The position numbers and the translations under genes were made by a program. A stretch of DNA of 64,000 nucleotides, taken from the NCBI GenBank assembly GCA_943788175.1, contig CALSPG010000001.1, positions 96,001 through 160,000 on the forward strand, read 5' to 3'. The notes below the pieces were generated by a model. It saw only the letters and a list, made by a program, of their open reading frames with translations, searched no databases and was not told the DNA's origin. The stretch is from an uncultured bacterium. GTDB lineage: Bacteria > Fidelibacterota > Marinisomatia > Marinisomatales > UBA1611. Below are positions 1 to 18,404 of the stretch, piece by piece (the first letter of the stretch is position 1; every line of letters starts with the position of its first letter).

Positions 1-2939
1 TATTCCTTACCAGAGACCTTCTATTTTGTATGTTCTTCCGAATAATATAGGAAACCTTTTAGGGACAGTTGAAGTACTTATGGATTGGAAAAAAAGAATG
101 GGATATGAAGTAAACTATATATCTAGTTCTAATATTGTGAATAACTCTAATAACCTTAAAGATTATATAGAGACTGCTTACGAAGGTTGGGATAATCCCC
201 CAGAATATGTTACTATCGTAGGCGATGCTGAGGGTAGCTACGATATACCAACGCATTTTGAAAATTGGAGTGGTTACAATGGAGAAGGTGACCATCCTTA
301 TGCCACACTAGTTGGAAATGATTTATTCCCGGAATTATTTGTTGGTAGGCTTTCTTTTGATAGTCAAAGCCATTTACAGACCATTATAAGTAAAACTGTT
401 AATTATGAATCAAACCCCTATATGGGTGAAAATTGGTTTAAAAGAGCATGTTTAGTTGGAGACCCTTCTACTTCAGGCGTTTCATGCATTATTACAAATA
501 ATAATATAAAAGAAGTTCTTCAAAATTATGGATATGAAGATATAAGAACTGTTTTTTCTGGGGATTTTCCTAGTCAGATGACTAGTAATCTTAATGATGG
601 AGTAGGGTTTTTTAATTACAGAGGTTTTTATGGCGTAAGTGGCTATACGAATGATGACCCTGGCTTGTCAAATAATGGTTTTATGCTTCCAATTGCCACA
701 GTCATTACCTGTGGAACGGGTTCTTTTGGTACTGAAGAATCATTGTCCGAGTCGTTTTTAAGAGCTGGAACTGCTTCAAACCCAAGAGCTGCAGTTGCTT
801 GTATCGGTACTGCAACACTGGGTACGCATACGATGTTTAATAATATGGTTGATATGGGTTTTTATCATGGCGCTATTGTTGAAAATATAAACTCAGTTGG
901 TGGTGCTCTTATGGCCGGTAAACTCTGGCTTTCTAGAGCATACCCTACGAACCCTAATCAATATGTTTCTACTTTTACTCATTGGAACAGCCTTATGGGT
1001 GATGCCTCTCTTCAAATGTGGACAGAATATCCTGAAATGCTAAATGTATCGCATTTGTATTCTCTGACAAAAGGTACCAATTTCATCGATTTTTCGCTTA
1101 CTAATAGTGGTGGCAACCCTGTGCAAGATGCTTGGGTAACAATCTACAAAGAAGGCTCTGTTTTAGAGTCTGGTTATAGTGATTCCAATGGATCAATTCG
1201 ATTAATGATTCCAATTGTTCAGGAAGGCGAGATTCTTGTAACAGTTACTAAAAAAAATCATTACCCATATCAAAGCTCTTTTCAAATCTACAATCCAGGT
1301 GCCAGTGTGAATATTTTTGGTGATAACATATCCCTAATTGAAAATGGAACTGGTTCTTCAAATGGGAATGGAGATGGAGAAATAAATTCTGGCGAAGTAG
1401 TAGACCTGATTATTCCTGTATCGAACTATGGTAATGCAAATGCTTCTCAAATTAGTGGTACTCTTTCTTCAGAAAATTCTAATGTTACAATTACAAATGA
1501 TACATTTTTTTACGGAGACCTAACATCAGGAGATGTTGTTAGTAACGATTCATCTCCGTTTACATTTAGCGTAAATAACGATGTGCATGATAATTCAAAT
1601 GTTAAGCTGTTGCTTACACTTACCAATAGTAATGGTTATTTGTCTACAGGCTATTTGGAGTTTTCTGTCTCAGGCAAAAATATTTATGCATCGAATATTG
1701 ATGTTTCTGGCAGTAGTCAAGATGTCTTGTCAGCCGGAGAAATATCAAATGTTCATATTCAATTACATAATATTGGCTCCACTATAGCACAAAATATTAC
1801 AGGTCAAATAACCTCATCATCTGGTGCAATAGAGATTATTGATAATTCCGCTACTTGGTCATCAATCAATCCAGGTGCCTATAGCTCTAGCTCAAACAGT
1901 GGGGATTCATTTATTATTAGTGCTCAAGAAGATGTTATTCCTGGGACCATCGCAAATTTAATTGTATCTCTAAGTTCGGATGATGGATACTCAGCCTCTT
2001 CAGTTATTACGATCCAAATTGGTATTCCGTCAGAAAATGATCCATTGGGACCAGATGAATATGGTTATTATATATATGATAGCGGAGATATTGACTATCT
2101 TATTGCACCATCTTATGATTGGATTGAGATAGATGATAGGTATGATGGAAATGGTACGTATTTAAACTCCCTAAGTGATAATGGCGATAATGGAGATGAT
2201 GTCCAGACAGTTTAGCCTACCTTTTAATTTTAGATTTTATGGCCAAGAATATGAAAGTCTAAGTATTTGTTCAAATGGATGGATATCTTTTGGCGCAACT
2301 GATTTAAGCTCATTTAGAAATTATCCTCTGCCAGGAGCTGGGGGACCAGGAAAGATGGTCGCTGTTTTTTGGGATGATTTAAAATTAACAAATTCAGGAA
2401 GAGTTTATACTTGGTATGACGAAATTAATAAATTGTTTATAGTTCAATGGTCAAGAGTTCGTACTTTCCAAAATAATACTTCAGAAACATTTCAAGTGAT
2501 TTTAAAAGATCCTATGTATCACACTACTCCTACTGGTGATGGCGAAATAGTGATACAATATTTAGATTTCAATAATGATACTAATGGAAGCTATAGTTGG
2601 AGTCAAATTCATGGTAACTATTGCACTGTAGGTATTGAAGATCATACAATGAAACGAGGATTACAGTATACTTTTAATAATTCATATGCTGATGCAGCTA
2701 TGCCTTTATCAGATGGAACTGCGATTTTAATTACCACCCGTGGAAGTGAACTGCGTTTAGATGGTGATTTAAATACTGATGGAATGATTGATGTGAATGA
2801 TCTTCTTATTCTTATAGATCATATCGTTGTAGACCAAACAAATTTTAACCCATACCTAGCAGATATAAATTCTGATGGAATGGTGAATATTTTGGATATG
2901 GTAAGGCTTATTCAAATTGTAATGGGTTACGATCAGTAA
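1..2939 (+). CDS. Gingipain-like peptidase C25 family protein with Ig-like repeats, a NIDO-like domain and a C-terminal dockerin; 5'-truncated by the window, with one apparent frameshift at ~2211-2213
   Basis: C25 motifs (YVTIVGD, GDHPY, PELFVGRLS, VITCGTG, SLMGDASL). The frame is open back to base 2. Removing one T in 'cag aca gTTT agc cta cct' joins ORF 26..2215 to ORF 2175..2939 (DDVQTV-SLPFNFRFYG), matching the uninterrupted paralog at 14032. It ends in duplicated GDLNxDG..D / ADINxDG.VNILD dockerin repeats. Confidence 0.85.
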
Positions 2940-2960
2940 TTTTAACTGAGTCTTGCGGGT

Positions 2961-4145
2961 ATGCTAATTTCGCCCTTATTGATTCTTGGTTTTCTAGCTA
3001 CCCTTTTAATCATTGCCGGCCTACTAGAATTTAAATACCATCAAACAAGCTTATCCGGTATTCCAATTAGAATTCATGTAAACGGTACCAGAGGAAAATC
3101 AAGCGTCACTCGTCTTATAGCTGCAGGGTTAAGAGCTGGAGGAAAACGTACATTTGCCAAAACAACAGGCACGGCACCTAGAGTAATTGATTCTAAAGGA
3201 ATCGATAGAATTATCCATAGATTAAGAAAACCCTCTATTGGTGAGCAAGTAAGATTGCTTAAATATTTTTCTGATGAAAAACCTGATGTGGTTGTAATGG
3301 AATGTATGGCAGTTCAACCTCAATATCAGTGGATCTCTGAACATCAGATGGTAAAATCAGATATTGGGGTTATTACGAATGCAAGGCCAGATCACTTAGA
3401 TGAAATGGGGCCAACAGAAGTGGATGTTGTAAAATCATTATGTAATTCAATTCCTGTAGGTGGTGTTCTTGTAACGGCTGAAAAAAAACACAAAAAAATC
3501 ATTAAAAAAGTTACGTATGACAATAACTCTGATTTTATTTTATCAGATGAAAATTCAATTTCAAATGAGTATATAAACAATTTTAAATACATCGAGCACC
3601 CTCAAAACATAGCAATCGCATTGGATGTGTGTGAAAAAATTAGGAATTGATAGAGACACAGCAATAGGAGGTATGCACCAAGTTCAACCAGATTTAGGTG
3701 CTTTGATTGTTTGGAAATTAATTGGTCAAAAAGGTTCATTGCAATTCGTAAATGGAATGGCTGCAAATGACCCCGTATCGACATTGCAAATATGGAAATT
3801 TGTAATTGATAGGTATCCTACCAAAAGTGCAACGGCGGTATTTTTTAATTCAAGAGATGACCGCCCTATACGTACAAAACAAATGTTAGAACTCACGTTT
3901 GAAGAAATTCGACCTGAATATTTAATTGTCAGAGGTGATAAGATCGAAGCAAAAATAAACAAGCTTAAACACCACTCGCCTGAAACTATTGTTATAAATA
4001 TTCTCTATTGACGAGAAGCCTGATGTTGTTAGTAAAGCGATATTAAATTGCCTGATGATTCAATTATTTACGCAATTGGTAACCAAGTAGGAAGTTGGGC
4101 AAGAGATATTAGAAGATTTAGCCAGGAATAGAAGTAATTGGTTGA
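2961..4145 (+). CDS. capB: Poly-gamma-glutamate synthase CapB/PgsB (Mur-ligase fold), interrupted by several single-base indels
   Basis: N-terminal TM helix, then HVNGTRGKSSVTRLIAAGLR, KTTG, ECMAVQP, TNARPDHLDEMGP, AANDP and NSRDDR. The C-terminal 'IYAIGNQVG' motif is readable in another frame at ~4065-4092. Directly upstream of capC. Confidence 0.92.
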
Positions 4146-4582
4146 AATTAGCATTGGGTTAGGAATTATTCTAAGCTTAGTATTGTCAGAAGCTCTAGGC
4201 GTCACAGCTGGTGGGATTATTGTGCCAGGTTATATAGCTTTATTTTTACATCAACCAGTTCAGGATATTCTCAACTTTTTTTGTAGCTATTTTGGTTTTA
4301 GGAATAATAAAAATTTTAAGCAAAATTATGTTCTTATATGGAAAAAGGAGAATTGTACTTGCACTGATCCTTGGTTTTTTCTTCGGCTATTTATCTAGAA
4401 CGTTGTATGTTGATTCGGAAAGCATAAAAAGTGTTGCTGTTATAGGTAATATTATACCTGGCCTTATTGCAAATTGGATGGATAGACAAGGTGTGACGCG
4501 CACAATTTCAGTTGTTATTCTTACAGCTGTCATTGTAAAGCTGATGGTGATGATATTATTTGGAGGAGCAATCTTTGAATAA
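4138..4582 (+). CDS. capC: Poly-gamma-glutamate biosynthesis membrane protein CapC/PgsC; one apparent frameshift at ~4264
   Basis: GVTAGGIIVPGYIAL, LYGKRR and IGNIIPGLIANWMDRQG motifs. ORFs 4138..4398 and 4292..4582 join if one G is removed from 'cagGata'. Confidence 0.92.
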
Positions 4583-5729
4583 TTACAAACAAAATCCATT
4601 CATTCCTGCAATTCAAAAAACATCCACTCTCTTAATTTTGTCTCTTATAGCAATGGTTGCCTTTATAATTTCATTAAAGAGTACCATCATAGAGGTATCA
4701 TCTTCATACGATACGAAAGTTAAAGCTGCTTCTCTAATGAAAAAATCAATGAATGTATTGAAGTCTAATAGAATGGTTTCTAGTGTTTTTATTGATGATG
4801 AAAATGACCCGAATGAAACCGGATTAGTTGGAAGTCCATTCAGTCTGATAACTACTGACGAAGGTGATTTAGACGCGAAACTCACAACATTAGATCCAAA
4901 CTTTTCTGCAGGTATGGTCGAACTGATGGTTCAAGTCGGCATAGAAAAAAATGACACTGTAGCGGTCCTTTTAACTGGGTCTATGCCAGGTGGAAATATT
5001 GCAGTCCTTACTGCATTGAAAGCACTTGGCGCTTATTCTGTTGTCATTACATCTGTTGGAGCATCACAATGGGGTGCAAATCATATTGATTTTACTTGGC
5101 TTGATATGGAAAAAATACTTTATGAAGAAAATTTAATTCTAAATAGAAGTATAGCTGCATCCATTGGCGGACGAAATGATATGGGTAGATTACTTAGTCC
5201 TGAAGGAAGAAATATTATTAATAAAAATATTTCAAAGCATGGGTTACCAATAATTAAAAAAAGTAGATTGGCTGATAACATAAGTCATAGAATGAAACTT
5301 TTTAATAATATCGCGAAAATAGATAATTATAGTGCAATGATAAATGTCGGAGGTGGTGTAGCAAGCTTGGGTACAAGTTTTAATTCAAAATTACTTCCTG
5401 CAGGCATTGTAAATAGATCTGATGTCCAAAGTATTTCATTGCAGGACGGTGGAATAGAAGGTGTTTTATCAAAATTTTCAAAAAACGACATTCCGGTTTT
5501 ACATGTATTAAACATTAAATCATTAACAGAAAAACTTGGAATGCCTTTTGCTCCAATACCTGTTCCTGAGGTTGGTGTGGGTACTTTATATGCTGTTGAA
5601 AAATATAACGTATTTGTTGCCTTCGTCTGCTTAATCGTCTTATGTAGTGCAGTTTTTGTAGTTGGTTATCAAAGTAAAAAAGAAATAAAGGAGCATCTCA
5701 TAAATCATGAGCCAGATAGTTTACTATAA
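4575..5729 (+). CDS. pgsW: Poly-gamma-glutamate system protein (PgsW type)
   Basis: DPNETGLVG..S.ITT..G.L.AK.TT..PNF, TGSMPG, SVGASQWGAN and INVGGG motifs, with N- and C-terminal TM helices. Follows capBC. TTG start at 4575 with GGAGG at 4562-4566. Confidence 0.85.
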   Translation: MNNYKQNPFIPAIQKTSTLLILSLIAMVAFIISLKSTIIEVSSSYDTKVKAASLMKKSMNVLKSNRMVSSVFIDDENDPNETGLVGSPFSLITTDEGDLDAKLTTLDPNFSAGMVELMVQVGIEKNDTVAVLLTGSMPGGNIAVLTALKALGAYSVVITSVGASQWGANHIDFTWLDMEKILYEENLILNRSIAASIGGRNDMGRLLSPEGRNIINKNISKHGLPIIKKSRLADNISHRMKLFNNIAKIDNYSAMINVGGGVASLGTSFNSKLLPAGIVNRSDVQSISLQDGGIEGVLSKFSKNDIPVLHVLNIKSLTEKLGMPFAPIPVPEVGVGTLYAVEKYNVFVAFVCLIVLCSAVFVVGYQSKKEIKEHLINHEPDSLL

Positions 5730-6585
5730 GTTAATTTTTATCTCGTTGTTCTTTATTTGTGAATCTACTGCGTTTGCAAAATTATTGAGACCATCAAAGA
5801 ATCGAGACCAGAAAGAAATTCTTGTCATAAACTCAAAAAGAAGAGTTTATTATCCAATTAAACAAGAAGGTCTTGTTTATCAGATTAATGGCCCTGTAAG
5901 GACGGAATTTATTAGTAGGTATCCAGTACTAAAGAAAAAGAAAAGGAGTCACAGTTTTAACTATGTTATTGTACTTAACCAAAAAGACACCATTAACGTC
6001 AATCATCGATACAAAGTGCAATCTCCTGTGCGCTCTGTTCAGCACCCAAAACATAGATACACTTTTTCTGGAAACTATTTTATTAACCTGCCTAAAGGAA
6101 ACCATACGGTAGAAATTCTTCAAAATAAAGATTTAAAGTACCCTGTTCTTCTTCGGCTATTATCGAAAGAATTTGAAACCCCAAAGAAAGATCAAGAAAT
6201 ATTAGTTCCTATGGTTCATAAGAATAATGTGGATATTGAATTAGATGGAAAAAATCTAAAATATTTTGAATGTAGTAAAAATATACCTTTGCAGATAGAA
6301 GCATACGGTCCAAAGATCTTAAGAATTATTAGTAGATTAGAGTTTACAGAAAAAATGGGAGCACAGGAATCTTATAGAATTCACGTAAAAAGTGAAAAAA
6401 AAGTGGTTGGAACTTATTTTTTTAATACTGAAAGGTCTGGATCTTCAAAAATTAAAAATCGGTCAGATAAAGTACCTGGCAAATGGCGAAGTTGTGAAAT
6501 TAAAGTACCAAAAGGTAATCATAATTTTTCTATTGAAGTTTTTGATGAGGGAAAAACAGCTCTTACGCGTTTTATGTTATACTAA
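5707..6585 (+). CDS. Secreted, Lys/Arg-rich hypothetical protein with two internal repeats
   Basis: Signal peptide ending AFA. The pattern GP....ISR ... PKGNH occurs twice. Overlaps both neighbours. Confidence 0.7.
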   Translation: MSQIVYYKLIFISLFFICESTAFAKLLRPSKNRDQKEILVINSKRRVYYPIKQEGLVYQINGPVRTEFISRYPVLKKKKRSHSFNYVIVLNQKDTINVNHRYKVQSPVRSVQHPKHRYTFSGNYFINLPKGNHTVEILQNKDLKYPVLLRLLSKEFETPKKDQEILVPMVHKNNVDIELDGKNLKYFECSKNIPLQIEAYGPKILRIISRLEFTEKMGAQESYRIHVKSEKKVVGTYFFNTERSGSSKIKNRSDKVPGKWRSCEIKVPKGNHNFSIEVFDEGKTALTRFMLY

Positions 6586-7613
6586 TGCGATTTTTAATTA
6601 TACTTAAAATACTATATATTTTTTGCTCTGCTAACGGCTCAACGCCTATCGACTTAAGTTTGAGTTATCAAGGTGGGTACGATGATAATGTAATGAGATT
6701 TTCTAAAAAAGAAATTTCAGATGCTTCGTCTAATATTAAATACCTTGGTGGTTCAAAAACTTTTGATAGTTATATTAATAAAATTCAATTTGGTTTTAAT
6801 AAAACATTATATGCAAAAAATAACAAAGAGGTGCTTTATAATTCATCTGTGGCTTTGTCCGATTATGTCCATAATTCGAACAAAGACTATTGGTCAGGTA
6901 ACATATCTGTAAAATATAAATGGGGGTCATACCGAAATCTAAAATACTCTTTAAGACATCTTAATAGTTACTATTTACGTCATTATATTGATAGAGACTT
7001 ATCCTTAAATGAATTGAAATCATGCAGCTTCACAGATAACGATCAAAATGTGTCGATTTCAAATAGAATCAATAAGAGAAATTGGTATATCATTAGTTTT
7101 GGTTTTCTTCAAAGGTATTATGATAAACCATTCACAGAATTTGACTTAAATATCTATTATGCTAAAGTAAAGATAAATAAAAAAATAAAAAGATATGGTA
7201 CAATTTCTTTTCAAGTAAATCGAGGTTTCGCTGATAATGTGACTTTTACAAAAACTGGTATTTCAAGTGATTTTGACCGTTCATATGAATCTATTGAATG
7301 GTATATGCCTATAAAAATAAACAGCCCGGTACCTATGATTGAGAATTTTGGTTTTTCATTTAGACAAGAACTAAGATATTATAATGCAGAAGCTGTAAAT
7401 GATGTTTTACATGCAGGTAGAGATCACGTAGATAATAAATTGGACTTTTGGTTCAATAAGAGTCTAAAAGAAAATCTTGATGTCGTATTTAGTGTTCGTT
7501 TTCGATCAAGAGAAACAGGGTCATCATATAGCTGGGTTCGTGATCTAAAGAGTTTTAAACAAATGCAGTTATGGTGTAAAATTAAATGGGGTTTTTCCTA
7601 TGATAATTATTAA
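6585..7613 (+). CDS. Putative outer-membrane beta-barrel protein
   Basis: Signal peptide, GYDDNV near the N-terminus, alternating amphipathic strands rich in aromatic residues, and an aromatic C-terminus (KIKWGFSYDNY). Confidence 0.6.
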   Translation: MRFLIILKILYIFCSANGSTPIDLSLSYQGGYDDNVMRFSKKEISDASSNIKYLGGSKTFDSYINKIQFGFNKTLYAKNNKEVLYNSSVALSDYVHNSNKDYWSGNISVKYKWGSYRNLKYSLRHLNSYYLRHYIDRDLSLNELKSCSFTDNDQNVSISNRINKRNWYIISFGFLQRYYDKPFTEFDLNIYYAKVKINKKIKRYGTISFQVNRGFADNVTFTKTGISSDFDRSYESIEWYMPIKINSPVPMIENFGFSFRQELRYYNAEAVNDVLHAGRDHVDNKLDFWFNKSLKENLDVVFSVRFRSRETGSSYSWVRDLKSFKQMQLWCKIKWGFSYDNY

Positions 7614-8652
7614 AAAAGTTAATTTTTTATTAATAGTTCTATTGTTGTTCTCATGCATGGAACCAAATGATGAGGGTCTTTGGTCTGTTGATCAAATAAG
7701 TGTTTTTAATACCCAAGGATTCTGTAGAGGCGTTTCTGTCGAAGAAAATATAGCCTATATTGCCTCTGGGCAAGCTGGGGTCCAAGTTTGGAATTTAGAA
7801 ACTGGAGACGCATTGCATGAATATTTGGGTTATTCACAAGATGGCTCTTACATTGAATTTGATGATATATCAATTGTAAAAAGAGATGGAGCTAATAATT
7901 TAATATTCGTTACTGAATCAAATAAAAAAGTAAAAGTTTTCTTTTTTGATGATAGTAGTGATTTTGTTTATAGGAACGAAATCATGAGTGATCGCACAAA
8001 AGACTATGTTTCATTTCCAACTGCTGGAGGTGGTTTTACTATGTATGTTGCTGATAATGATGATGGTCTCAAATGGGGAACATATAGGTCAGATACTACA
8101 ACCATATTCAATCTTGAGATAATAAATTGGATGCCAACTGCTGGTGGAGAAATTTCTACGGATGGAAAGCCGTTAGGCATCGATAGTAATGGTGAAAATT
8201 TAGTAGCTATGGCGGTAGATCAGTTAGGTGTAGAATTTTACAATCTTATTTTTAACCAATCTATTGAAAATGCTGGAGGGGAACCTGTTTTTCTTTCCAG
8301 GTTTGACTTAGGTGGTAATGCAGAACAAGTAAAATTAGTCGATAACGGAGCATATATATCAGTAGATGATTTCGGAGCATATTTTATAGAAAAAGAGTCA
8401 ATTTTATCTGGTGATGGTGAAGCTATTCATTTTGCAGAAGGCCTCACGGTTGATCACATTTCTATCAAAGATGATATAGCAGTATTAAGCATTGGATCTA
8501 AAGGTATTGCTCTTTATGATATTTCTGATATCCATAATCCTAAAGCAAAAGGAATTTTTGATGTTGGTTACACATACAAAACTGAATTCTGGGATGAATA
8601 CATTTTAATTTGTACTAGATCAGGTTTAAAAACTGCAAAAATAAATATTTAA
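7600..8652 (+). CDS. Lipoprotein with LVIVD-like beta-propeller repeats
   Basis: Lipobox LLFSC. Repeats such as IAYIASGQAGVQVWNL and IAVLSIGSKGIALYDISDIHNP. Confidence 0.7.
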   Translation: MIIIKKVNFLLIVLLLFSCMEPNDEGLWSVDQISVFNTQGFCRGVSVEENIAYIASGQAGVQVWNLETGDALHEYLGYSQDGSYIEFDDISIVKRDGANNLIFVTESNKKVKVFFFDDSSDFVYRNEIMSDRTKDYVSFPTAGGGFTMYVADNDDGLKWGTYRSDTTTIFNLEIINWMPTAGGEISTDGKPLGIDSNGENLVAMAVDQLGVEFYNLIFNQSIENAGGEPVFLSRFDLGGNAEQVKLVDNGAYISVDDFGAYFIEKESILSGDGEAIHFAEGLTVDHISIKDDIAVLSIGSKGIALYDISDIHNPKAKGIFDVGYTYKTEFWDEYILICTRSGLKTAKINI

Positions 8653-8677
8653 CATTTCAACGGAGATTAACAAATCA

Positions 8678-11600
8678 ATGAAGATTCGAGTTTTATTATT
8701 TTTTCTTACAATTTTTTCTTTGAGAGCTGAACAATTCACTTTCGATAATGCATCTCCAATTAGGCAAGGTGTTCATGTCGAATGGTATCGAACAGTCGTT
8801 CCCTCTCTCAATGGCTCTGCCATTTTCGTGTGGTCAGATACTCGATTTGGTATGCGCAATGTATTTGCTCACAAAATAGATAAAAATGGAAACCTATTGT
8901 GGGGTGAGGCAGGGACAGTTGTTACGAATTTACCTGGGAGGCAGGAAGACCCTGTATCAATTGAAGACGGCAATGGTGGCGCGTTCATTGCTTGGGTTGA
9001 CTATAGATTTGATGACGCTGGCGATATTTTTATCCAGCATGTAAACAATGATGGTTCAATATTGATGGATCCTAATGGAGTGGCATTAGCTCAGTTTCAA
9101 GGTCAGCAGATTTCCATAAACATGTGCACAGATAGTCTTGGTGGCGTTTTTGTAACTTGGCAAGATAAACGCGGAGGCGTTGATGATGATATCTATGGTA
9201 CTCACGTTGATAGCAATTATAATATCATTGAACCCGGAATAGGTGTTCCTATTGTAGTGCAGGGTGGAACTCAATCAGCCAAAAGCATTGAGTATGCAGG
9301 AAACAATGAGGCTTTTATTTGTTGGTCAGATTCTAGGCAAGGTGAAAATATTGATATTTACGGACAAAGATTAGATATGACTATGTCACCACTGTTTCAA
9401 GAAGATGGTATTCCTATTGCTAGTACTTCCGGGTTGGAAACTAGGCCACGTACAACCTTTGTAAATAATACAACTTCAATTGTGACTTGGAAGTTTGGCG
9501 ATGAAAATGGCAGAATATTATTTCAGTTTGTTGACCAAAATGGACTTGTTTTTACTAACTCAAAACCTGTTTCTGAGTATGATGCTATTCAAACTGGGCC
9601 AAGGCTAAAAAGAGGTAGTCAGGGCGACGTATTTTTGTCTTGGAAAGATTTACGTTTTGATCCTGTAGATGGTGATATTTTTATGCAAAAAATTAATGAA
9701 GATGGTGATGTGGAATGGGGCGATGGTATTCAGGTTGATTTAACAGACGGTGTTAATTTTAGCGGAAGATTTTCTGCAAATAATGTTGGCGGATTTGATA
9801 TATTTTGGGAGAAAGGTGTTTTTCCAAATGTTGATATCTTGTTTCAAAGTTTTAACTCGAACGGTCAGCCTCAGAGTGATATGCCAATTATTGTTACTAG
9901 TGATGAGGGTTACCAGTTCGCGCCCAATATCATTAGTGGTTCAAGTGATAGTGTATTTGTAGTTTATGCTGATCAAGGAAATGGTAGCATAGATTTAAAA
10001 GTTAATTACTACAAAGGTGTCAATTCGCTTTTCGAAACTGGTGGATTGCTTGCCGTTAAAGGGTTAGATGGTGATATTAAATATAATGTTGGATACCCAA
10101 TTGATGATGAAAAAATAGTTTTAGTTTGGGAAGATAATAGAGCAAGTAAGAAAATTTATGCAAATGTCATTAGCGCAGGAGAATTATCGCACTTAAATGG
10201 AAAACAACTCTCATTTTCTGACAACTCTTCAACTGAAATTGATTTGTCCAGTCCGTTTATGATAAACGCATCTAATTATGTTTATACTGCAACCTTCGAT
10301 GCCACCGGAACACCGAAAAAGATTAGAATAAATAAATTAAATGCTAACCTGGAAAATGTTTGGGATCAAAGTGGCGTTTCCCTCAATCCTGAGAATGATC
10401 AACGGAACGCTCATTTGGTAGATCTCGGGATGCAGGGCGTTGGTGTTTTTTGGTCAGAGAGTAGATCTTTTTTAAGTGGTTTTGATATATTTTTTCAATC
10501 GCTAAATAATAATGGAGAAAGTCAGCTGAATGCCGGGGGTATTGCCGTAGCAGAGTCAAATGGAGATGATTATATCCAAAGTATACTGCCAACGCCTGAT
10601 GGAAATTTTCTTATTTTTTGGGTAGAAGAAGTTTGGCCAGCATCAAGATTAAAGTATACTAAAGTAGATGCAGGTGGGTCTACATCTATTGGTTGGCCTC
10701 CAAATGGCTATAGTCTTAGTAATCAAACTATAGGGGCAAATAACTTATCTGTTAAATCAATATCTGAAACCAGCGGTGTGCTTGCAGTTTGGAATCAAGA
10801 GGGGAATTTTAGTGATATTTATGCCCAAAAAATTAATTGGAATGGTCAAACAGAATGGGACGATAACGGTGTGGCAATAAGTATAGAGGACAATGATCAA
10901 TCTGCGATATCTTTTGATATTGATCAACCAGGTCAAACAGCATTTATTGTATGGGAGGATTATCGTAATGGTACTGATTATAACGTTGTTGGTAGAGAGT
11001 TAAACCTTGTTTCAGGTGCTATGAATCAAATCGATGTCTTTTTTACATCTGATACAACCAACCAACAAAAGCCGCTGGTGAAATCAGTTGCGGCAGGAGA
11101 ATATATTATTGTCTGGGAGGATGGTAGAGGATATTACAATGATGACCCGCTTTTAATAAATGGTGTTGATCTTTATGGTTCAGCGTATGTTGTTGGCTCT
11201 GGAAGAACAACAGGTATAGATGGCATTCCAATATCTGTTGAATATCATGGTCAAAAAAATCCTAGGATTACTAAATATAGTGGCGAAGACTATCTTCTTC
11301 ATTGGATTGATCTTAGAAGTTCAGGGAAGGAGGACCTTGCTAATTATTATGCTAAAATTATTAGAAGGACAGGTATTCTCAGCTCTAAAAATGAAGAATT
11401 TGATATAAATATTCCAAATAGTTTTGAGATTCAATCTGTATACCCAAATCCATTTAATGGTAAAGTTAAATTTGATTTTACCATCGACACTCCTCAATTA
11501 GTGACATTCAATGTCTATGACATTACTGGGAAAATGATTGTTGATGAATTAATAATAGGCGGTGCAAGAGGTTATCATCAAATTTCTTGGGATGGAAAAA

Positions 11601-11695
11601 ATAAATATGGTGATTTGGTTTCAAGTGGAGTTTATTATTACACATTTACACTGCAAGAGAAGATTGTAAAAGGTAAACTGACTTATTTAAAGTAA
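8678..11695 (+). CDS. Secreted repeat (probable beta-propeller) protein with a T9SS type-A/FlgD-Ig C-terminal domain
   Basis: Signal peptide. Many W.D.R...DI(Y/F).Q..(D/N)..G repeats. C-terminal YPNPFN...VYDITG...WDGKN..G..VSSGVY...KLTYLK. Confidence 0.8.
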   Translation: MKIRVLLFFLTIFSLRAEQFTFDNASPIRQGVHVEWYRTVVPSLNGSAIFVWSDTRFGMRNVFAHKIDKNGNLLWGEAGTVVTNLPGRQEDPVSIEDGNGGAFIAWVDYRFDDAGDIFIQHVNNDGSILMDPNGVALAQFQGQQISINMCTDSLGGVFVTWQDKRGGVDDDIYGTHVDSNYNIIEPGIGVPIVVQGGTQSAKSIEYAGNNEAFICWSDSRQGENIDIYGQRLDMTMSPLFQEDGIPIASTSGLETRPRTTFVNNTTSIVTWKFGDENGRILFQFVDQNGLVFTNSKPVSEYDAIQTGPRLKRGSQGDVFLSWKDLRFDPVDGDIFMQKINEDGDVEWGDGIQVDLTDGVNFSGRFSANNVGGFDIFWEKGVFPNVDILFQSFNSNGQPQSDMPIIVTSDEGYQFAPNIISGSSDSVFVVYADQGNGSIDLKVNYYKGVNSLFETGGLLAVKGLDGDIKYNVGYPIDDEKIVLVWEDNRASKKIYANVISAGELSHLNGKQLSFSDNSSTEIDLSSPFMINASNYVYTATFDATGTPKKIRINKLNANLENVWDQSGVSLNPENDQRNAHLVDLGMQGVGVFWSESRSFLSGFDIFFQSLNNNGESQLNAGGIAVAESNGDDYIQSILPTPDGNFLIFWVEEVWPASRLKYTKVDAGGSTSIGWPPNGYSLSNQTIGANNLSVKSISETSGVLAVWNQEGNFSDIYAQKINWNGQTEWDDNGVAISIEDNDQSAISFDIDQPGQTAFIVWEDYRNGTDYNVVGRELNLVSGAMNQIDVFFTSDTTNQQKPLVKSVAAGEYIIVWEDGRGYYNDDPLLINGVDLYGSAYVVGSGRTTGIDGIPISVEYHGQKNPRITKYSGEDYLLHWIDLRSSGKEDLANYYAKIIRRTGILSSKNEEFDINIPNSFEIQSVYPNPFNGKVKFDFTIDTPQLVTFNVYDITGKMIVDELIIGGARGYHQISWDGKNKYGDLVSSGVYYYTFTLQEKIVKGKLTYLK

Positions 11696-11725
11696 GTTAT
11701 TAAGTAAATTGTATTTATTGCTATT

Positions 11726-14053
11726 ATGAATGTATTTAAGAGTATAATTCTGTACATATTTTTATGGGGATTTGTTTCTTCGCAGTCCCTAGATGAAAGA
11801 TATCACTCTTATCCTGAAATTTTATCATTAATTGATTCATTGTCGAACGTCGAAGAATACCAAAGCATACTTTTAGTTGATACTATTGGATATTCTTCTT
11901 TAGAAAATATTCCAATTGTTGCTGTTAAAATATCAGATAATGTTAACATTAAAGAAGATGAGCCTAGAGTATTGTTTGTCGGTCAGGTTCATGCTGAAGA
12001 AGTATTAGGAATTGAAGTAATCCTAAGTTTAATGAATGATCTTTTGGACCCAAGACCTGAAGAATATAATCACATGAATATTTTAAAATCCTATTTAGAA
12101 GTTTGGTTGATTCCATCTGCAAATCCGGATGGTCTTGGAGTGGTGCATGAAGGTCTTGATTTAACATTTAGAAAAAATAAGACTGATTTTTCCCCAGGAG
12201 GTCTTGACCCTAATGGTATATTCGATTTTGAACCATCGATTGGTAATGATGTAGATGGTGTCGATTTGAATAGAAATTTTGGATTTAATTGGACATTTGG
12301 TGATACTTTTTTAGTTTTTGACGAGACAGATTATGGTTCTCATTATGATTATTATCGAGGGCCTGCACCATTTTCTGAGAGCGAGGCAGTCGCAATTCGT
12401 GACTTAGCACTTCAGCATGATTTTGTTTTTTCAATTGTATGGCATAGTTCTAGGTCAGGTAGATTATCTGAGAAGGTTTTTACATCCTGGAATTGGGAGG
12501 GTGCTAAGCCTTCACCAGATCTAGATTTGATGAAAGGAGTTGCAGACACGTTCTCTGGTTTGATGGAGAAAGAGGATGGTACGGGTAGTTATCTATCAGT
12601 CTTAAGTGGATCAAGGAATGGTAAACTCCATGATTGGTTTTATAGAGAAACCGGTTGTATTCAGTATTTAGTGGAGTGTGGAACTTCAAACCTACAGCCA
12701 GATAGCTTATTAATTGAAAGTACAGTTAGTAGAACGAAACCTGCGATGATTTATCTAATGGATAGAACCATTGGTTACAATACGGATGCTGGGCAAGCTA
12801 CTGGTATCATTTATGATGCAAATACAAATGCCCCTATTCATGGGGTAGAAATTAAAATCGAAGAACACTCAGGTTCTGTATTAAAACCGAGGTTAACAAA
12901 TGAATTTGGGCGTTACAGACGTATTTTAGATGCAGGAACGTATCATCTAAATATCTCAAAAAAAGGATATCTTCCTATTCGGCAATCAATTACAACAAAT
13001 AACAGTGGCATCACTGAAGCAGATTTTTCCCTAATCCAGGCGCCTTTACATTCAGTAAGAATAGATTTAGATAATGGACTGACTGGGAATCTACCATACG
13101 AAGTAAAGTGTCTTGTAATTAGTGAGAACGATACAGATACTCTATTGTTAGATGATTCATACCTTGACTTAATATTGCCTGAGGGTCTTTATAAATTGGT
13201 TATTAATCCATCTATTGGGACACCTTGGGAAAAGAAGTTGTATATTGATCAGAATTATAATTTTGTTGTACCAATGGGTACTGCAACTAGTTATGATCTT
13301 AGCCAGAATTGGAATGAGTGGTCAGCCGATCAAGATAGTTGGCACATCGTAAATAATAATTTATTATCACAGTCAAATATCTATTATGACAATAACGATT
13401 CGCTTCAAATATTACAAAAAATAAGTTCTCCACTTTATGATATCTCTGGAAAAAATAGAGTTACATTTAAAATAGTTCACCAATATGAGACAGAATGGGA
13501 TCATGATTCAGTAGGTGTTTCAATTTATGATGCTAACGAAACTTTATTATATAGAGATGGTTGGAGTGGCCATAAGTGGGGTAATTATGTTTCTAATTAC
13601 TTTAGTATTACTAATAATCAAGGGTATTATGACTCATTGAGATTGGTGTTATGGTTTAAAACTGACCAAACAGTTAATTATCGTGGATGGGATATAATTA
13701 GTTTCACAATGTATGCATTGGATGATGCATTTTTGTCAGTTGAAGAAATTTCATCTAATACTCTGCCTCAGATTAATTTTAATTTTCAAGGTGTTTTCCC
13801 CAACCCCTCGTTTGGGAAAATGAGTTTAGATGTCCGATCTTGGCAAGGTGGTTCTGCGAAGGTAAAAGTGTATAATATATTAGGTCAACAATTGTATGAA
13901 AGAAAAACTGAGGTTTTAAGAAAAGGTAGTTTCTTTCTTAATTTAGACTTTAGAGATTTTAACTATGCTCCAGTAAGTTCTGGAATGTTCTTTGTTGAAA
14001 TTGAATCAAATAATCAGAAAGTAATTCGAAAATGCATCATATTAAAAAATTAG
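11726..14053 (+). CDS. Secreted M14 zinc carboxypeptidase with a carboxypeptidase regulatory domain and a T9SS-like CTD
   Basis: HAEE (HxxE), NPDG, RKN, GVDLNRNF, PFSESE, VWHS and VECG motifs. C-terminal FPNP...VYNILGQ...SSGMFF. Confidence 0.88.
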   Translation: MNVFKSIILYIFLWGFVSSQSLDERYHSYPEILSLIDSLSNVEEYQSILLVDTIGYSSLENIPIVAVKISDNVNIKEDEPRVLFVGQVHAEEVLGIEVILSLMNDLLDPRPEEYNHMNILKSYLEVWLIPSANPDGLGVVHEGLDLTFRKNKTDFSPGGLDPNGIFDFEPSIGNDVDGVDLNRNFGFNWTFGDTFLVFDETDYGSHYDYYRGPAPFSESEAVAIRDLALQHDFVFSIVWHSSRSGRLSEKVFTSWNWEGAKPSPDLDLMKGVADTFSGLMEKEDGTGSYLSVLSGSRNGKLHDWFYRETGCIQYLVECGTSNLQPDSLLIESTVSRTKPAMIYLMDRTIGYNTDAGQATGIIYDANTNAPIHGVEIKIEEHSGSVLKPRLTNEFGRYRRILDAGTYHLNISKKGYLPIRQSITTNNSGITEADFSLIQAPLHSVRIDLDNGLTGNLPYEVKCLVISENDTDTLLLDDSYLDLILPEGLYKLVINPSIGTPWEKKLYIDQNYNFVVPMGTATSYDLSQNWNEWSADQDSWHIVNNNLLSQSNIYYDNNDSLQILQKISSPLYDISGKNRVTFKIVHQYETEWDHDSVGVSIYDANETLLYRDGWSGHKWGNYVSNYFSITNNQGYYDSLRLVLWFKTDQTVNYRGWDIISFTMYALDDAFLSVEEISSNTLPQINFNFQGVFPNPSFGKMSLDVRSWQGGSAKVKVYNILGQQLYERKTEVLRKGSFFLNLDFRDFNYAPVSSGMFFVEIESNNQKVIRKCIILKN

Positions 14054-17000
14054 TCTTTTTTATTTTCTTTATAAGCCTTTCATTATCAGGCGATAGGCAC
14101 TTTAGAGGTATGAATAAAAATGAAGTCCTACGATCAAAAATCCCAATTAGTTTTAGACATCAAGTAATGCAGGGATATGATGTCTTACCTCAACAACTTT
14201 CTGTAAATAGAGGATCATATTTGATAATTGCTAGAGAAGGGTTAGTGCAACAAGGATACGTTGAAGTTTTCGCAGAGTTTAAAAAAACACAAGGTTTTAA
14301 TGTTTATATTGTTTCCCTCTCAGATTCTGAATTAGATGTAAATAGTGTCCAAAATCATATTACGGAGCACTTTACAGCAGACCCAATGCTTGAATATGTT
14401 CTGCTTATTGGAGATGTTGATGGTTTCGCAGAAATACCGTCATATTACTACGGACCAGAAAATGATGTAACAGATCAAAAATACACCCATATTTTAGGAG
14501 ACGATTACATCCCAGACTTGTTTATTGGAAGAATTTCTATAGACTCGGCTTATGAATTAGCTGTGATAATGTTAAAAACAATTGCCTATGCTAGAGAGCC
14601 TCTTGCTTATGACCAAAATTGGCTTGATCGAGCACTTGTAGTAGCTGGCAACTATGCTAATTCTCCTCCAATTCCGATAACTCCCAAGTGGACATCTTCT
14701 TGGCTTCGAGATGAGTTATTGAACTTAGGATATAACTCAGTGGATACAGTTTTCTATCCTCCTATTCAGCAAGGTGCTCCTTATATTACAGAAATAATCA
14801 ATAATGGTGTAGGTTTAGTTAATTATAGGGGCTGGGGAGATGCAAATGGCTGGCATTATCCAGAATTTCATGCTGATGATGTAAATGGCTTAAATAATGG
14901 TTGGTTAACACCTGTTTTTATGAGTTACGTTTGCAACTCAAATGATTTTGCTAATAGTGTAGACCCGTGTTTTGCTGAAGCTATATTAAGGGGAGGTACT
15001 ACAAGTAATCCAAAAGGTGGTGTCGCTTTTATAGGTCCATCCGATTTACACACTAGTACTAAATATAATAATGTAATAAATGCTTCAATGTATGATGCGA
15101 TGATTAATTATGATGTTCTCGAGTTGGGCCCTGCTTTGATGGCTGGGCAGTTTGGGCTTGTTAAAGAATTTCCAAACCAGGACGAACCGGGAGAAGCTCA
15201 AGAATTTTATTTTCACGTTTATAATATTTTAGGTGATCCTTCGCTCCAAGTTTACTTAGATACTCCTGATACTTTTCTTATCGAGGCAGATGAAGTTTCG
15301 TTCAAAGACGGTTACTTAAACGTTAAGGTTACATCATCAGACGGTACACCAGTTAAAGAAACTGTTATAGCTGTTATAAAAGATGGCCAGATTTTATCTA
15401 AAGGGATTACTTCAGATAGTGGATATTATATTGATAATATAAATATAGATAACCAAAGTAATATTGATATTTATGCAAATAAAGCTGGCTTCATTCAGGG
15501 GCATATCTCTAAATCAATAAATAATGAAAATAGTTCAGGTTTAAGAATAAAAAAAATATACTCATCTAATGAACTTGAATCTGGTATTAATTCTTTTGGA
15601 AGTGTAATTGATTTAAATATTCAATTTTTAAATTCTTCTTTTAACACTTTTGAAAGTAGTGATGCTGTAATTAATTTTTCTCAAGGGTTAACACCGTCGA
15701 GTTCTTCTTTTTCATTACCTAGAATATCAAGTGGTGATTCGGCTATTGTCTCCGTAAGTAGTTTGCAGATTCATGGTAGCGGCAGCGAGTATTACATAGA
15801 TGGCACTATCCTAAATCAAAATGGGGATGAATTATTTAATATTGGATTGAAAATCGAACCTGTAAATATTTTAGCTTCTATTGTTAATCAAGATGTATCT
15901 GTTTTATCTGAATTTAGTCCTCAAATTGAAATAAATAATTACTCTGCATCAAAGTATGAAGATGTAAAAATAATACTTCAAACTTTATCGGAAGGTTCTG
16001 AAATTATAAATAATGGCAACGTGAGTTTGAGTCATAATGTTGAGCCCTTTTCTAGCGAAGTGTTTCAAACAGATTACAGTGTTAATGTTGGAAACATATC
16101 TTCTGGAAGTACAGTGACAATTTTGCTTCAATTAAAAAAATTAGATTCAACTTTTTTTAGTCAAAAGTTAGAGTTTGAAATTGCTTCTGAATTTCAAAAT
16201 TTCCCTGTTTCTCCTAACGATTACGGTTATTGGGCATATGACAATACAGATACTGAATATGAACAAAAGCCCTCTTTTGATTGGATCGAACTAGACCCTT
16301 CCTTTGGTGGCGATGGCGCAACTGAATATTTATTGGATGATGATGATCACGTTGATGTTCAACTTCCTTTTCAAGTTAAATATCATGGTGAATACTATAA
16401 TGAATTGACGATTAATTCAAATGGTTGGGCATCTTTGGTTCCATGTGATATTGATTATTTTTGGAACATGTCTATCCCCTCATTTATGAGCCCTAAAGCG
16501 ATGCTAGCTCCATTTTGGGATGATCTTGAGGTTGTAGGTGAAGATTGGATTAGAGTGTACACAAAGCATGATGCTCTTCAAGGGAAGTTTATCATTGAAT
16601 GGTCAAGGGCTTTAAATGGTTATGATGAATTAACAAAAGAAACTTTTGAAATCATTATTTATGATACAAATTCAATGTCAACAGCATCGGGTGACAATGT
16701 GATTGAGTTTCAATATTTAGAAATAGATGATGTAGATGTTACCAAAAATTATTCTACGGTCGGTATACAATCCCCTCAAAACAATGATGGTTTGTCTATG
16801 GTTTTTAACAATAATTATACTCCAGGCGCAACGAGCTTAGTTGATAGTACTGTTATCAGGTTCACAACTGACGCACCAGATTCATACATATCACCATTAG
16901 GTGTAGATGAAAAGATTTTGATTCCTGAAAACTTTATTATCGGTAAGTTATATCCGAATCCATTCAATCCTAGAGTAAATATTGATTTAAAAGTAGTGGA

Positions 17001-17205
17001 AAACGGTAAAGTTACTATATCTGTTTTTGATATGAGGGGAAGAGTTGTTGATGAGATTCATTCAGGGATATTAGTTTCTGGAAATCATCATTTTTCATGG
17101 GATGGAAAAACATACAACAATCAACTGGCTAGTTCAGGTGCCTATTTTTTGGTTGTCTCAAATGGAACAAACAAGCAATTCAAAAAAATGTTGCTTTTAA
17201 AATAA
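14032..17205 (+). CDS. Second gingipain-like peptidase C25 family protein, with a NIDO-like domain and a T9SS type-A/FlgD-Ig CTD
   Basis: YVLLIGDVD, TDQKY, PDLFIGRIS, YVCNSNDF and YNILGDPSL motifs. C-terminal YPNPFN...WDGK...ASSGAY...KMLLLK. Confidence 0.88.
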   Translation: MHHIKKLVFFIFFISLSLSGDRHFRGMNKNEVLRSKIPISFRHQVMQGYDVLPQQLSVNRGSYLIIAREGLVQQGYVEVFAEFKKTQGFNVYIVSLSDSELDVNSVQNHITEHFTADPMLEYVLLIGDVDGFAEIPSYYYGPENDVTDQKYTHILGDDYIPDLFIGRISIDSAYELAVIMLKTIAYAREPLAYDQNWLDRALVVAGNYANSPPIPITPKWTSSWLRDELLNLGYNSVDTVFYPPIQQGAPYITEIINNGVGLVNYRGWGDANGWHYPEFHADDVNGLNNGWLTPVFMSYVCNSNDFANSVDPCFAEAILRGGTTSNPKGGVAFIGPSDLHTSTKYNNVINASMYDAMINYDVLELGPALMAGQFGLVKEFPNQDEPGEAQEFYFHVYNILGDPSLQVYLDTPDTFLIEADEVSFKDGYLNVKVTSSDGTPVKETVIAVIKDGQILSKGITSDSGYYIDNINIDNQSNIDIYANKAGFIQGHISKSINNENSSGLRIKKIYSSNELESGINSFGSVIDLNIQFLNSSFNTFESSDAVINFSQGLTPSSSSFSLPRISSGDSAIVSVSSLQIHGSGSEYYIDGTILNQNGDELFNIGLKIEPVNILASIVNQDVSVLSEFSPQIEINNYSASKYEDVKIILQTLSEGSEIINNGNVSLSHNVEPFSSEVFQTDYSVNVGNISSGSTVTILLQLKKLDSTFFSQKLEFEIASEFQNFPVSPNDYGYWAYDNTDTEYEQKPSFDWIELDPSFGGDGATEYLLDDDDHVDVQLPFQVKYHGEYYNELTINSNGWASLVPCDIDYFWNMSIPSFMSPKAMLAPFWDDLEVVGEDWIRVYTKHDALQGKFIIEWSRALNGYDELTKETFEIIIYDTNSMSTASGDNVIEFQYLEIDDVDVTKNYSTVGIQSPQNNDGLSMVFNNNYTPGATSLVDSTVIRFTTDAPDSYISPLGVDEKILIPENFIIGKLYPNPFNPRVNIDLKVVENGKVTISVFDMRGRVVDEIHSGILVSGNHHFSWDGKTYNNQLASSGAYFLVVSNGTNKQFKKMLLLK

Positions 17206-17215
17206 GAAATTAATC

Positions 17216-17470
17216 ATGATAAATAATAGCTCTGCAATTACAATATATTCAACTTCTTGGTGCGGTCCTTGCGCAAGTGCGAAAAGACTACTTAAAGAAA
17301 AGGGGTTTTCCTTTGATGAAGTAGATATTGAAGAAAAAGGAATGACGCGTGAGGATCTTTATGAAAAAACTGGCGGGCGTACAGTTCCTCAAATAGTTGT
17401 TGATGGAAAAACAATCGGTGGTTACGATAACTTATTAGAGTTAGAATCAGATGGAATGTTGATAGTTTGA
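17216..17470 (+). CDS. Glutaredoxin (GrxC-like)
   Basis: WCGPC, TVPQI and IGGYD motifs; 84 aa. Confidence 0.9.
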   Translation: MINNSSAITIYSTSWCGPCASAKRLLKEKGFSFDEVDIEEKGMTREDLYEKTGGRTVPQIVVDGKTIGGYDNLLELESDGMLIV

Positions 17471-18404
17471 TAGCTGATTATTTAAATAGGCTAAGGGTTT
17501 CAATCATTTTTGGAACCCTTTTTTTATGCCTAAGTTGTGTTAGTCAAGCTCCAACCGTATGGTTTTTGAGAGATTTGCAGTCGCTTGACGCCAATATAAT
17601 GAATACAGTCCAGTGGTTAAAGATTGAAAAAAGCAATTTTAAATTTTTGAATAAATCTATTAAGAAGAAGTTAAATCTTTTTAGAAAAACTAATTTTTTA
17701 GTATTTCAAAAAATTGAAATAGAAATCAATAGTATTGAAAAAAATATAAAAAATATTGAGGCAAACCTCACAAAGCAAAAAAAATTGGCTAGACGAATAA
17801 AAAAAAGACCAAAACTAAAAATATTTGAGGCCTATGATAACAAAGAGACTAAAAGGCTTCCATTTCTTGGAAAAGAAAAGGAAACTGGTTTAAAGAATAG
17901 TAAATCAAAAACGGTTTTAAAAATTTTAGAGTCTTTGGCAAAAAACAGTTCTTTAATCATTGTAAATCAAGCGGCTTATAATAGCTCCTTAAATAACCTA
18001 ATTAAGTTTTTTAAGAAAGAAAAATACGACCTTGTTTTTATAAGGAAAGAAATAGAAGAATATAAATACACTATCAAAGAGTTAACTATTCAGCGAAAAC
18101 AACAAAATATTCTTTTGGAGAAATTAATTTTCAAGCTAAATGATGCTCTTCTTGTTAGTAAAAAATCTTCTTATACTTTAAACCTTTTAGATATAAGTCA
18201 AAATATTCAAAACTATAATAATAAGATGGATAAATTTGAATATTTTGTTAATAACTTAGTTGATATTGGTGGTAAAGAGTGCCGCGGGTTAGTTTATTTA
18301 AAAAAAATGGCCATAAAAAAGAATATCAAAAAAAATATGAGATGGGTCTCATTGACTATAAAACTACCTTGAGTGAAATACCAAAGTTAATTTCATCAAT
18401 TTAG
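17467..18404 (+). CDS. Basic coiled-coil hypothetical protein, possibly a lipoprotein; probable indel in the A-run at 18300-18307
   Basis: Lipobox-like LCLSC and a helical Lys-rich sequence. One added A extends the frame (NGHKKEYQKKYEMG...LISSI) to a TAG at 18402-18404, which abuts the convergent gene's stop. Confidence 0.55.

Follow-up and report, generated by a model that had tools for sequence, protein, structure and literature searches.

We analysed a window of 64,000 nucleotides (nt) (positions 96,001 to 160,000 of contig CALSPG010000001.1) from an uncultured bacterium of the phylum Fidelibacterota, the genome of which comprises 2.27 Mb in 12 contigs. In this window, two genes for gingipain-like proteins of peptidase family C25, here named C25#1 (P0001) and C25#2 (P0002), stand on either side of a poly-gamma-glutamate gene cluster with pgsB and pgsC (Table 1), and both encode a domain in which the catalytic His is replaced and the nucleophile Cys is kept. 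The close protein relatives of the pair carry the source labels Candidatus Marinimicrobia or Neomarinimicrobiota. The gene of C25#1 begins 680 nt before the first letter of the window, and the part inside the window runs from about residue 228 on. The full protein has about 1200 amino acids (aa) and contains a prodomain (Propeptide_C25, encoded upstream of the window), a C25-like domain, an immunoglobulin-like (Ig-like) region, a NIDO-like domain and a dockerin.

Fold and active-site residues

Both proteins belong to family C25 by sequence and by fold. They match Pfam PF01364 with E-values of 1.9e-55 (C25#2) and 2.3e-45 (C25#1), and phmmer searches against PDB chains aligned them to the gingipain RgpB with E-values of 1.1e-26 and 6.6e-22, respectively. 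The AlphaFold model of residues 60-430 of C25#2, calculated from an input alignment of 72 rows, has a predicted local distance difference test (pLDDT) score of 96, and its top Foldseek match is RgpB (1cvr; template modelling (TM) score 0.83, root mean square deviation 2.9 Å), with Kgp also among the best matches. In the phmmer alignments, NYTGHG of RgpB (Thr209-Gly210-His211) pairs with NYRGWG in C25#2 and NYRGF in C25#1, and DVACVNGDF pairs with SYVCNSNDF and VITCGTGSF, respectively. The RgpB residue numbers are counts along chain 1cvr_A, consistent with the excerpts of PMC9559808 and PMC4357240. An earlier note on this DNA, made from the letters alone, had read NYRG-F and NYRG-W in place of NYTG-H and a retained nucleophile Cys in both proteins; the coordinates and the alignment to RgpB agree on the replacement, and both Cys codons align with Cys244.

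The two proteins differ at their ends. The prodomain PF08126 is matched by C25#1 (E-value 4.6e-11 in its own gene, 4.5e-23 in an intact orthologue), and no Propeptide_C25 was found in C25#2 by the Pfam scan. C25#2 ends in a type A sorting domain of the type IX secretion system (T9SS) (TIGR04183 / PF18962; residues 973-1054), where C25#1 has a dockerin instead. The NIDO (nidogen-like) module, located at 2175-2939 and 16300-17000 of the window (forward strand), has strongly conserved motifs of its own and follows the C25-like domain in nearly all members.

There are four C25 paralogues in the genome, namely PorU, one canonical member and the two His-less proteins. PorU lies on contig C6 (NF033707, 583 bits) and shows INYIGHG and the Cys, and the canonical paralogue reads NYTGHG/VACVNG and carries a dockerin. 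Besides ordinary C25, the genome also encodes many T9SS peptidases. Identity of C25#1 or C25#2 with PorU was rejected, given that neither matches NF033707 and the genome has a separate PorU. A gamma-glutamyltranspeptidase (CapD-type) domain was not matched in either protein by Pfam or NCBIfam.

A large subfamily with conserved Cys and Arg

To describe the family, a full HMMER scan was run over 1.84 billion cluster representatives, and it returned 6818 relatives at E<=1e-3, of which 450 also pass E<=1e-30. Residues were typed in the best 150 of the 6818. Among these, 148 span the motif, none with His and 147 with Arg, and 146 span the Cys column, 145 of which have Cys. For the conservation counts we pooled cluster representatives and open reading frames (ORFs) of fetched loci into a set of 328 rows, which share ancestry and come from at least six phyla.

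In this set, the columns of Arg266 and Cys301 (numbering of C25#2) each hold the same residue in 327 of 328 rows. Position 268, the former His, is occupied by Trp (219), Tyr (63), Phe (26), Leu (6), Gly (5), Ala (3) or others (6), and never by His. Further downstream, Thr/Ser341 (317 of 328), Thr/Ser343 (318), Asn346 (321) and Asn/Asp347 (325) make up the loop motif [ST]-x-[TS]-[RK]-x-N-[ND]. The sole exception to the rule of Arg and Cys is P0225, which has lost Arg, Cys, one loop Thr and the Asn all together and is possibly either decayed or poorly sequenced. The Cys is retained across paralogues of about 30% identity, above nearly every other residue. A disulfide was considered as the reason for this and rejected, because the candidate partner Cys313 is kept in 266 of 328 rows only.

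For the tree, FastTree was given a random subsample of 100 family rows, the two proteins of the window and 15 His-bearing C25 domains of the phylum; PorU, which failed to align, was left out, no Porphyromonas sequence was included and the root is arbitrary. All 102 His-less tips fall in a single clade (support 0.90). The NYRG pattern is not a matter of chance, since it is conserved across the family, and the His-less C25 proteins form a large subfamily in which Cys and Arg are conserved near-absolutely. The earlier note had proposed such a subfamily, to be abandoned if no His lay near the Cys and the Cys proved variable, and both the 328 rows and the single clade of this limited tree agree with the proposal. 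Many clusters, in the hundreds, annotated as “C25 family cysteine peptidase” or “gingipain domain protein” thus cannot be ordinary His-Cys proteases.

Remodelled S1 pocket

The excerpts of PMC9559808 describe the S1 pocket of RgpB as having a base made up of Val242 and Thr209 (their Cγ atoms), a charge anchor at the bottom (Asp163), a lid (Trp284) and a lining of Gly210-His211 and Met288; bonds to the P1 Arg come from Gln282 and Trp284 (excerpt of PMC4357240). Mapped on this pocket, the His-less family has its invariant Arg at the Thr209 position and Thr or Ser at the position of the Trp284 lid. The Asp163 column contains Pro (137), Thr (47) and Cys (23) and no acid. The column of Glu152, the third member of the triad, contains Tyr (161), Pro (50) and Phe (19) and again no acid, in an alignment that is approximate owing to indels in this segment. 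Compared with an active C25 peptidase, the family therefore has the catalytic Cys (327 of 328) and lacks Glu152 and the catalytic His (Phe in C25#1, Trp in C25#2, His in 0 of 328); compared with an Arg- or Lys-specific gingipain, it lacks the acid at the bottom of S1 and has an Arg at the base instead. Because a negative anchor is lost and a positive residue gained, the charge of the pocket would be reversed, and the pocket should prefer a carboxylate.

The prodomain of C25#1 relatives suggests the same direction. A profile built from 45 family prodomains matches the solved prodomains of Kgp (E-value 3.1e-31) and RgpB (1e-26), and its consensus P-v-q-p-d-e-e-e overlies PSKGVISR of RgpB and PHQPSMSK of Kgp. 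The consensus Glu falls on Arg126 of RgpB (chain residue 107) and on a Lys of Kgp, which presumably plugs S1 as Arg126 does. In RgpB, the inhibitory loop Lys121-Tyr135 puts Arg126 into S1, and the loop matches the substrate specificity (excerpt of PMC4138498). Over 95 family prodomains, this loop consists of Asp and Glu to 27%, compared with 13.5% in the whole prodomain; it has at least one acid in 87 of 95, only basic residues in 2 of 95 and a net negative charge in 72 of 95, and the column two before that of Arg126 is acidic in 51 of 95. This acidity is a trend in an uncertainly aligned loop and no fixed residue.

The earlier note had also suggested, with different chemistry as the alternative, that the general base has moved, and pointed to a His in the later THT/LHT loop. 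One part of this stood: both proteins have the loop His and, since phmmer aligns the loop with the S1-lid loop Gln282-Trp284 of RgpB, the His could reach the active site where it is present. As a rule for the family, relocation was rejected. The His is found at position 342 in 209 rows, at 339 in 78 and at 340 in 64, and 57 of the 328 rows (e.g. DLDTDT, DLYTST) have no His anywhere in 338-344; therefore the loop His cannot be the essential base of the family.

Linkage and co-occurrence with pgsB

For the phylum we surveyed 151 sampled genomes, counting pgsB when it scored over the model cut-off, which it did in 45 of them, and 40 pgsB loci were fetched. Most of these loci (29 of 40) are flanked by one or two C25 genes, 43 ORFs in total, every one of the YRG type. 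The other 11 loci comprise five small ones with a divergent pgsB (L039-L043), four cut off by contig ends (L028, L029, L033, L044), one that ends at the M14 gene (L027) and one with C25 genes further along the same contig (L034). Generally, gene order takes two main forms in the phylum. One clade (L139, L140, L141) has three His-less paralogues per cluster, of about 1500 aa (NYRGF), about 1044 aa (NYRGW) and about 1384-1416 aa (NYRGWLG), with the prodomain-bearing one at the far end of the cluster and not upstream of pgsB. As an observation in its own right, L039-L043 represent a second, divergent type of pgsB-pgsC-TIGR04332 locus, without surface-protein genes and without His-less C25.

Counted from the C25 side, a strong match to the domain of C25#2 (E<=1e-60) occurs in 43 of the 151 genomes, 38 of which have pgsB over the cut-off; among the remaining five, two have pgsB fragments at contig ends, and in the other three the contigs break off within the cluster. 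In seven genomes pgsB occurs and a strong match does not; the pgsB is divergent in six of these, and a contig end cuts the locus in one. The weaker C25 matches that were fetched are all canonical (14 of 14; xYxGHG).

Outside the phylum, one genome per species was searched with a 14-row alignment, which yielded 80 loci labelled Eisenbacteria, Krumholzibacteriota, Fibrobacteraceae, Gemmatimonadetes, WOR-3 and Stahlbacteria. Here pgsB lies at most 10 kb away in 53 of 80 loci, at least two C25 ORFs are present in 60 of 80, and the YRG motif is found in all C25 ORFs (143 of 143). When the count is restricted to loci flanked by 7.5 kb or more, pgsB is present in 40 of 52, and a further one, L056, carries pgsC and TIGR04332 on its opposite side. 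For the 11 unlinked loci that are left (L108 not included in the search), pgsB turned up elsewhere in 9 of 10 genomes, over the cut-off in eight and as two pieces in one; the tenth, a genome of unknown completeness, gave no match.

Linkage over several gene orders, together with co-occurrence when unlinked, is strong evidence that the His-less C25 proteins and pgsB serve one process. The earlier note had asked for NYRG-type C25 to be correlated with capBC and had named a lack of association as the refuting outcome; a very strong association was found in the phylum, in the other loci and in the unlinked genomes.

The gene cluster and its apparent frameshifts

Table 1. Genes and active-site features of the C25 pair and of the cluster between them (window coordinates)
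Feature	Position	Strand	Remarks
C25#1 gene (P0001)	1..2939	+	C25-like domain (NYRGF), Ig-like region, NIDO-like domain, dockerin
NYRGF of C25#1	614..628	+	NYRG 614-625; Arg207 620-622 at the RgpB Thr209 position; Phe209 626-628 at the His211 position
Cys237 of C25#1 (ITCGTG)	710..712	+	phmmer-aligned to RgpB Cys244
TLGTHTMFNN loop of C25#1	815..844	+	His 827-829; aligned to the RgpB S1-lid loop
pgsB (poly-gamma-glutamate synthase)	2961..4011	+	TIGR04012, 292.8 + 90.9 bits; apparent split
pgsC	4138..4582	+	TIGR04011; apparent split
Poly-gamma-glutamate system protein	4560..5729	+	TIGR04332; hydrophobic segments at both ends
Conserved cluster protein	5707..6585	+	signal peptide, no known family
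Putative outer-membrane beta-barrel	6585..7613	+	342 aa, 14 strands predicted, pLDDT 89.8
Conserved cluster protein	7600..8652	+	lipoprotein-like N-terminus
Repeat protein	8678..11695	+	1005 aa, T9SS C-terminal sorting domain
M14 carboxypeptidase	11726..14053	+	T9SS sorting domain
C25#2 gene (P0002)	14032..17205	+	1057 aa; signal peptide, C25-like domain 63-406, NIDO-like region, T9SS sorting domain
NYRGW of C25#2	14821..14835	+	NYRG 14821-14832; Arg266 14827-14829 at the Thr209 position; Trp268 14833-14835 at the His211 position
Cys301 of C25#2 (YVCNSN)	14932..14934	+	phmmer-aligned to RgpB Cys244
SDLHTSTKYNN loop of C25#2	15040..15072	+	His340 at 15049-15051; aligned to RgpB Asp281-Asp292

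The conserved neighbourhood in the window consists of pgsB, pgsC, the TIGR04332 gene, three unassigned genes, the C-terminal sorting domain (CTD) protein, M14 and the His-less C25 genes. For the unassigned cluster proteins, a lenient Pfam scan gave nothing usable, and Pfam scans found no gamma-glutamyltranspeptidase-type domain in the cluster. The unannotated putative barrel protein is confidently modelled and has CymA and OmpG as its best PDB matches (TM about 0.5), a likeness in barrel architecture only, and it also matches AlgE and the polysaccharide-export outer-membrane barrel 4y25; this protein is a candidate for the outer-membrane exit of the polymer. The M14 protein keeps the HxxE zinc ligands, the second His and the catalytic Glu in the alignment to carboxypeptidase T. 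Within the phylum its gene is a conserved part of the cluster, whereas in other phyla it turned up close to just 1 of the 80 loci.

Three genes in the window appear broken. C25#1 has an apparent stop at 2213-2215 and is broken at 2211 into two ORFs (2..2215 and 2175..2939), and pgsB and pgsC are split as well. The region 1900-4700 is spanned in one piece by the contigs of four public runs, which come from four studies, and these contigs share seven differences from the window, all of them single-base indels (2211, 3634, 3996, 4044, 4092, 4138 and 4265) and all within 2.1 kb. The contigs lack base 2211 and give a single C25#1 frame. With the indels applied, the frames measure 978 aa (C25#1 in the window), 398 aa (pgsB) and 152 aa (pgsC), the lengths of intact relatives. 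The breaks are most likely assembly errors, because the four runs agree on the indels and the frames become whole with lengths as in relatives; the reading of the three genes as pseudogenes was rejected on the same ground. Other parts of the assembly may hold similar errors.

Directly 3' of C25#2 there is a glutaredoxin gene (17216-17470, forward strand), followed by a gene for a Lys-rich protein of 301 aa with no known family (17467-18372, forward strand). Just downstream of the cluster, the reverse strand encodes a putative HExxH metalloprotease of the MXAN_6640 family with a T9SS sorting domain (18405-20105).

Possible role of the His-less C25 proteins

Our preferred reading, held tentatively and with confidence somewhat short of an even balance, is that the His-less C25 proteins are a dedicated surface component of a pgsB/pgsC-type synthesis and export cluster in double-membrane bacteria and act as enzymes on the gamma-glutamyl polymer. 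The exported polymer would be held in the S1-like pocket by one of its glutamyl carboxylates, and the Cys thiolate, its pKa lowered by the Arg, would act on the gamma-amide bond by cutting, sizing or transfer, similar in role to CapD or PgdS of Bacillus. The proton might be transferred by a non-canonical source, either the loop His where present or the alpha-carboxylate of the substrate. The T9SS sorting tail of C25#2 and the dockerin of C25#1 would place the proteins at the surface beside the M14 exopeptidase. We favour an enzyme over its main rival, a non-catalytic receptor that only binds the polymer, because the Cys is conserved beyond any structural need, is lost only together with the Arg, and a zymogen-type prodomain is kept. 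The more specific version, possible and yet doubtful, is that these proteins are a new enzyme class of clan CD without His, in which an Arg-tuned Cys thiolate, perhaps helped by the alpha-carboxylate of the substrate, cuts or transfers gamma-glutamyl bonds as a diderm counterpart of the CapD step.

Several points weigh against an enzyme acting on the polymer. We know of no clan CD peptidase that works without the catalytic His, and the loss of His and Glu152 is a classic mark of a pseudo-enzyme. Besides the missing loop His of the 57 rows, there is no invariant alternative base, and His does not exceed about two thirds of the rows in any column of the domain. Only 35 of 95 prodomains have an acid in the column that aligns exactly with Arg126, the alignment of this loop being uncertain. 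The spatial statements rest on the alignment to RgpB and on reviews. As for the association with pgsB, the relatives that were counted share ancestry and are not independent trials, and linkage tells that a process is shared without identifying the molecule that is bound or cut.

A rival view is that the proteins are non-catalytic pseudo-peptidases, in which the Arg pocket only binds the polyanionic polymer, so that the proteins anchor or organise it at the surface and M14 does the chemistry. The equivalents of His211, Glu152 and Asp163 are all gone without a conserved substitute base, large non-catalytic modules (NIDO-like, Ig-like, dockerin and sorting domain) are present, and two or three paralogues per cluster look scaffold-like. 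However, a binder needs no Cys, and here the Cys is kept in 327 of 328 rows even when there is no possible disulfide partner; the sole Cys-less copy (P0225) is also without Arg, and C25#1 keeps its zymogen-type prodomain. We regard this view as a serious one, on balance unlikely.

A protease specific for Glu or Asp at P1, which would mature cluster proteins or feed the cell and not act on polyglutamate, is improbable. The positive S1 base and the acidic prodomain loop would suit it, and the genome has ordinary C25 and many T9SS peptidases, but it fails to explain why the family occurs only with pgsBC, even unlinked, and it meets the same difficulty of the missing His as the polymer-acting enzyme does. 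That the genes are decaying or a sequencing artefact, the locus being dead in this genome, is hardly credible, for the three apparent splits at 2200-4400 of the window disappear with the seven indels shared by the contigs of four runs, and hundreds of intact relatives share the NYRG pattern.

Comparison with known systems

The nearest described proteins are the gingipains RgpB and Kgp of Porphyromonas gingivalis (MEROPS C25; 1cvr, 4ief, 4rbm and 5mun), which have the same fold (TM 0.83), Cys position and framework motifs, together with a homologous prodomain, as in C25#1, and likewise a T9SS sorting domain, as in C25#2. In contrast to gingipains, the His-less proteins have Trp, Tyr or Phe for His211, Arg for Thr209, Thr or Ser at the Trp284 position and no equivalents of Glu152 and Asp163; the bait loop of the prodomain is acidic and not Arg/Lys, a NIDO-like module is present, and the genes are set in a pgsBC cluster. 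PorU, a surface enzyme that carries out transpeptidation rather than plain hydrolysis, has a C25-related domain in common with the pair and is told apart from them by NF033707.

CapD of Bacillus anthracis and the polyglutamate hydrolases PgdS/PghP process or anchor exported poly-gamma-glutamate and are encoded next to capBC/pgsBC. CapD itself is of the gamma-glutamyltranspeptidase type and uses a Thr as its nucleophile. These proteins have no sequence or fold relation to the C25 pair, and only the proposed role is alike; a CapD-like role of His-less C25 would be an analogy without homology to CapD. Among clan CD homologues with altered catalysis, pseudo-caspases and pseudo-orthocaspases share a caspase-like fold and an incomplete His-Cys dyad with the family. 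In these proteins the Cys is usually lost too, whereas here it is near-invariant and accompanied by a new invariant Arg.

In the literature searched, no published link between C25 and polyglutamate was found, and, judged by titles and the openings of abstracts, no family of C25 pseudoproteases without His. For Cloacimonadota, a dockerin-bearing C25 peptidase and CapBC are both mentioned, separately, in the excerpts of PMC8542988.

In conclusion, His-less C25 proteins inflate the peptidase counts of marine SAR406 and related lineages, because these clusters cannot be ordinary His-Cys proteases. A near-invariant Cys-Arg pair in a caspase-like fold would mean either a chemistry not described for clan CD or a specific polyglutamate receptor. 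The papers searched describe no answer to how outer-membrane bacteria export, size and hold poly-gamma-glutamate, and the pgsBC cluster supplies concrete candidates for the export, sizing and retention of polyglutamate in diderms, which can be expressed and assayed.

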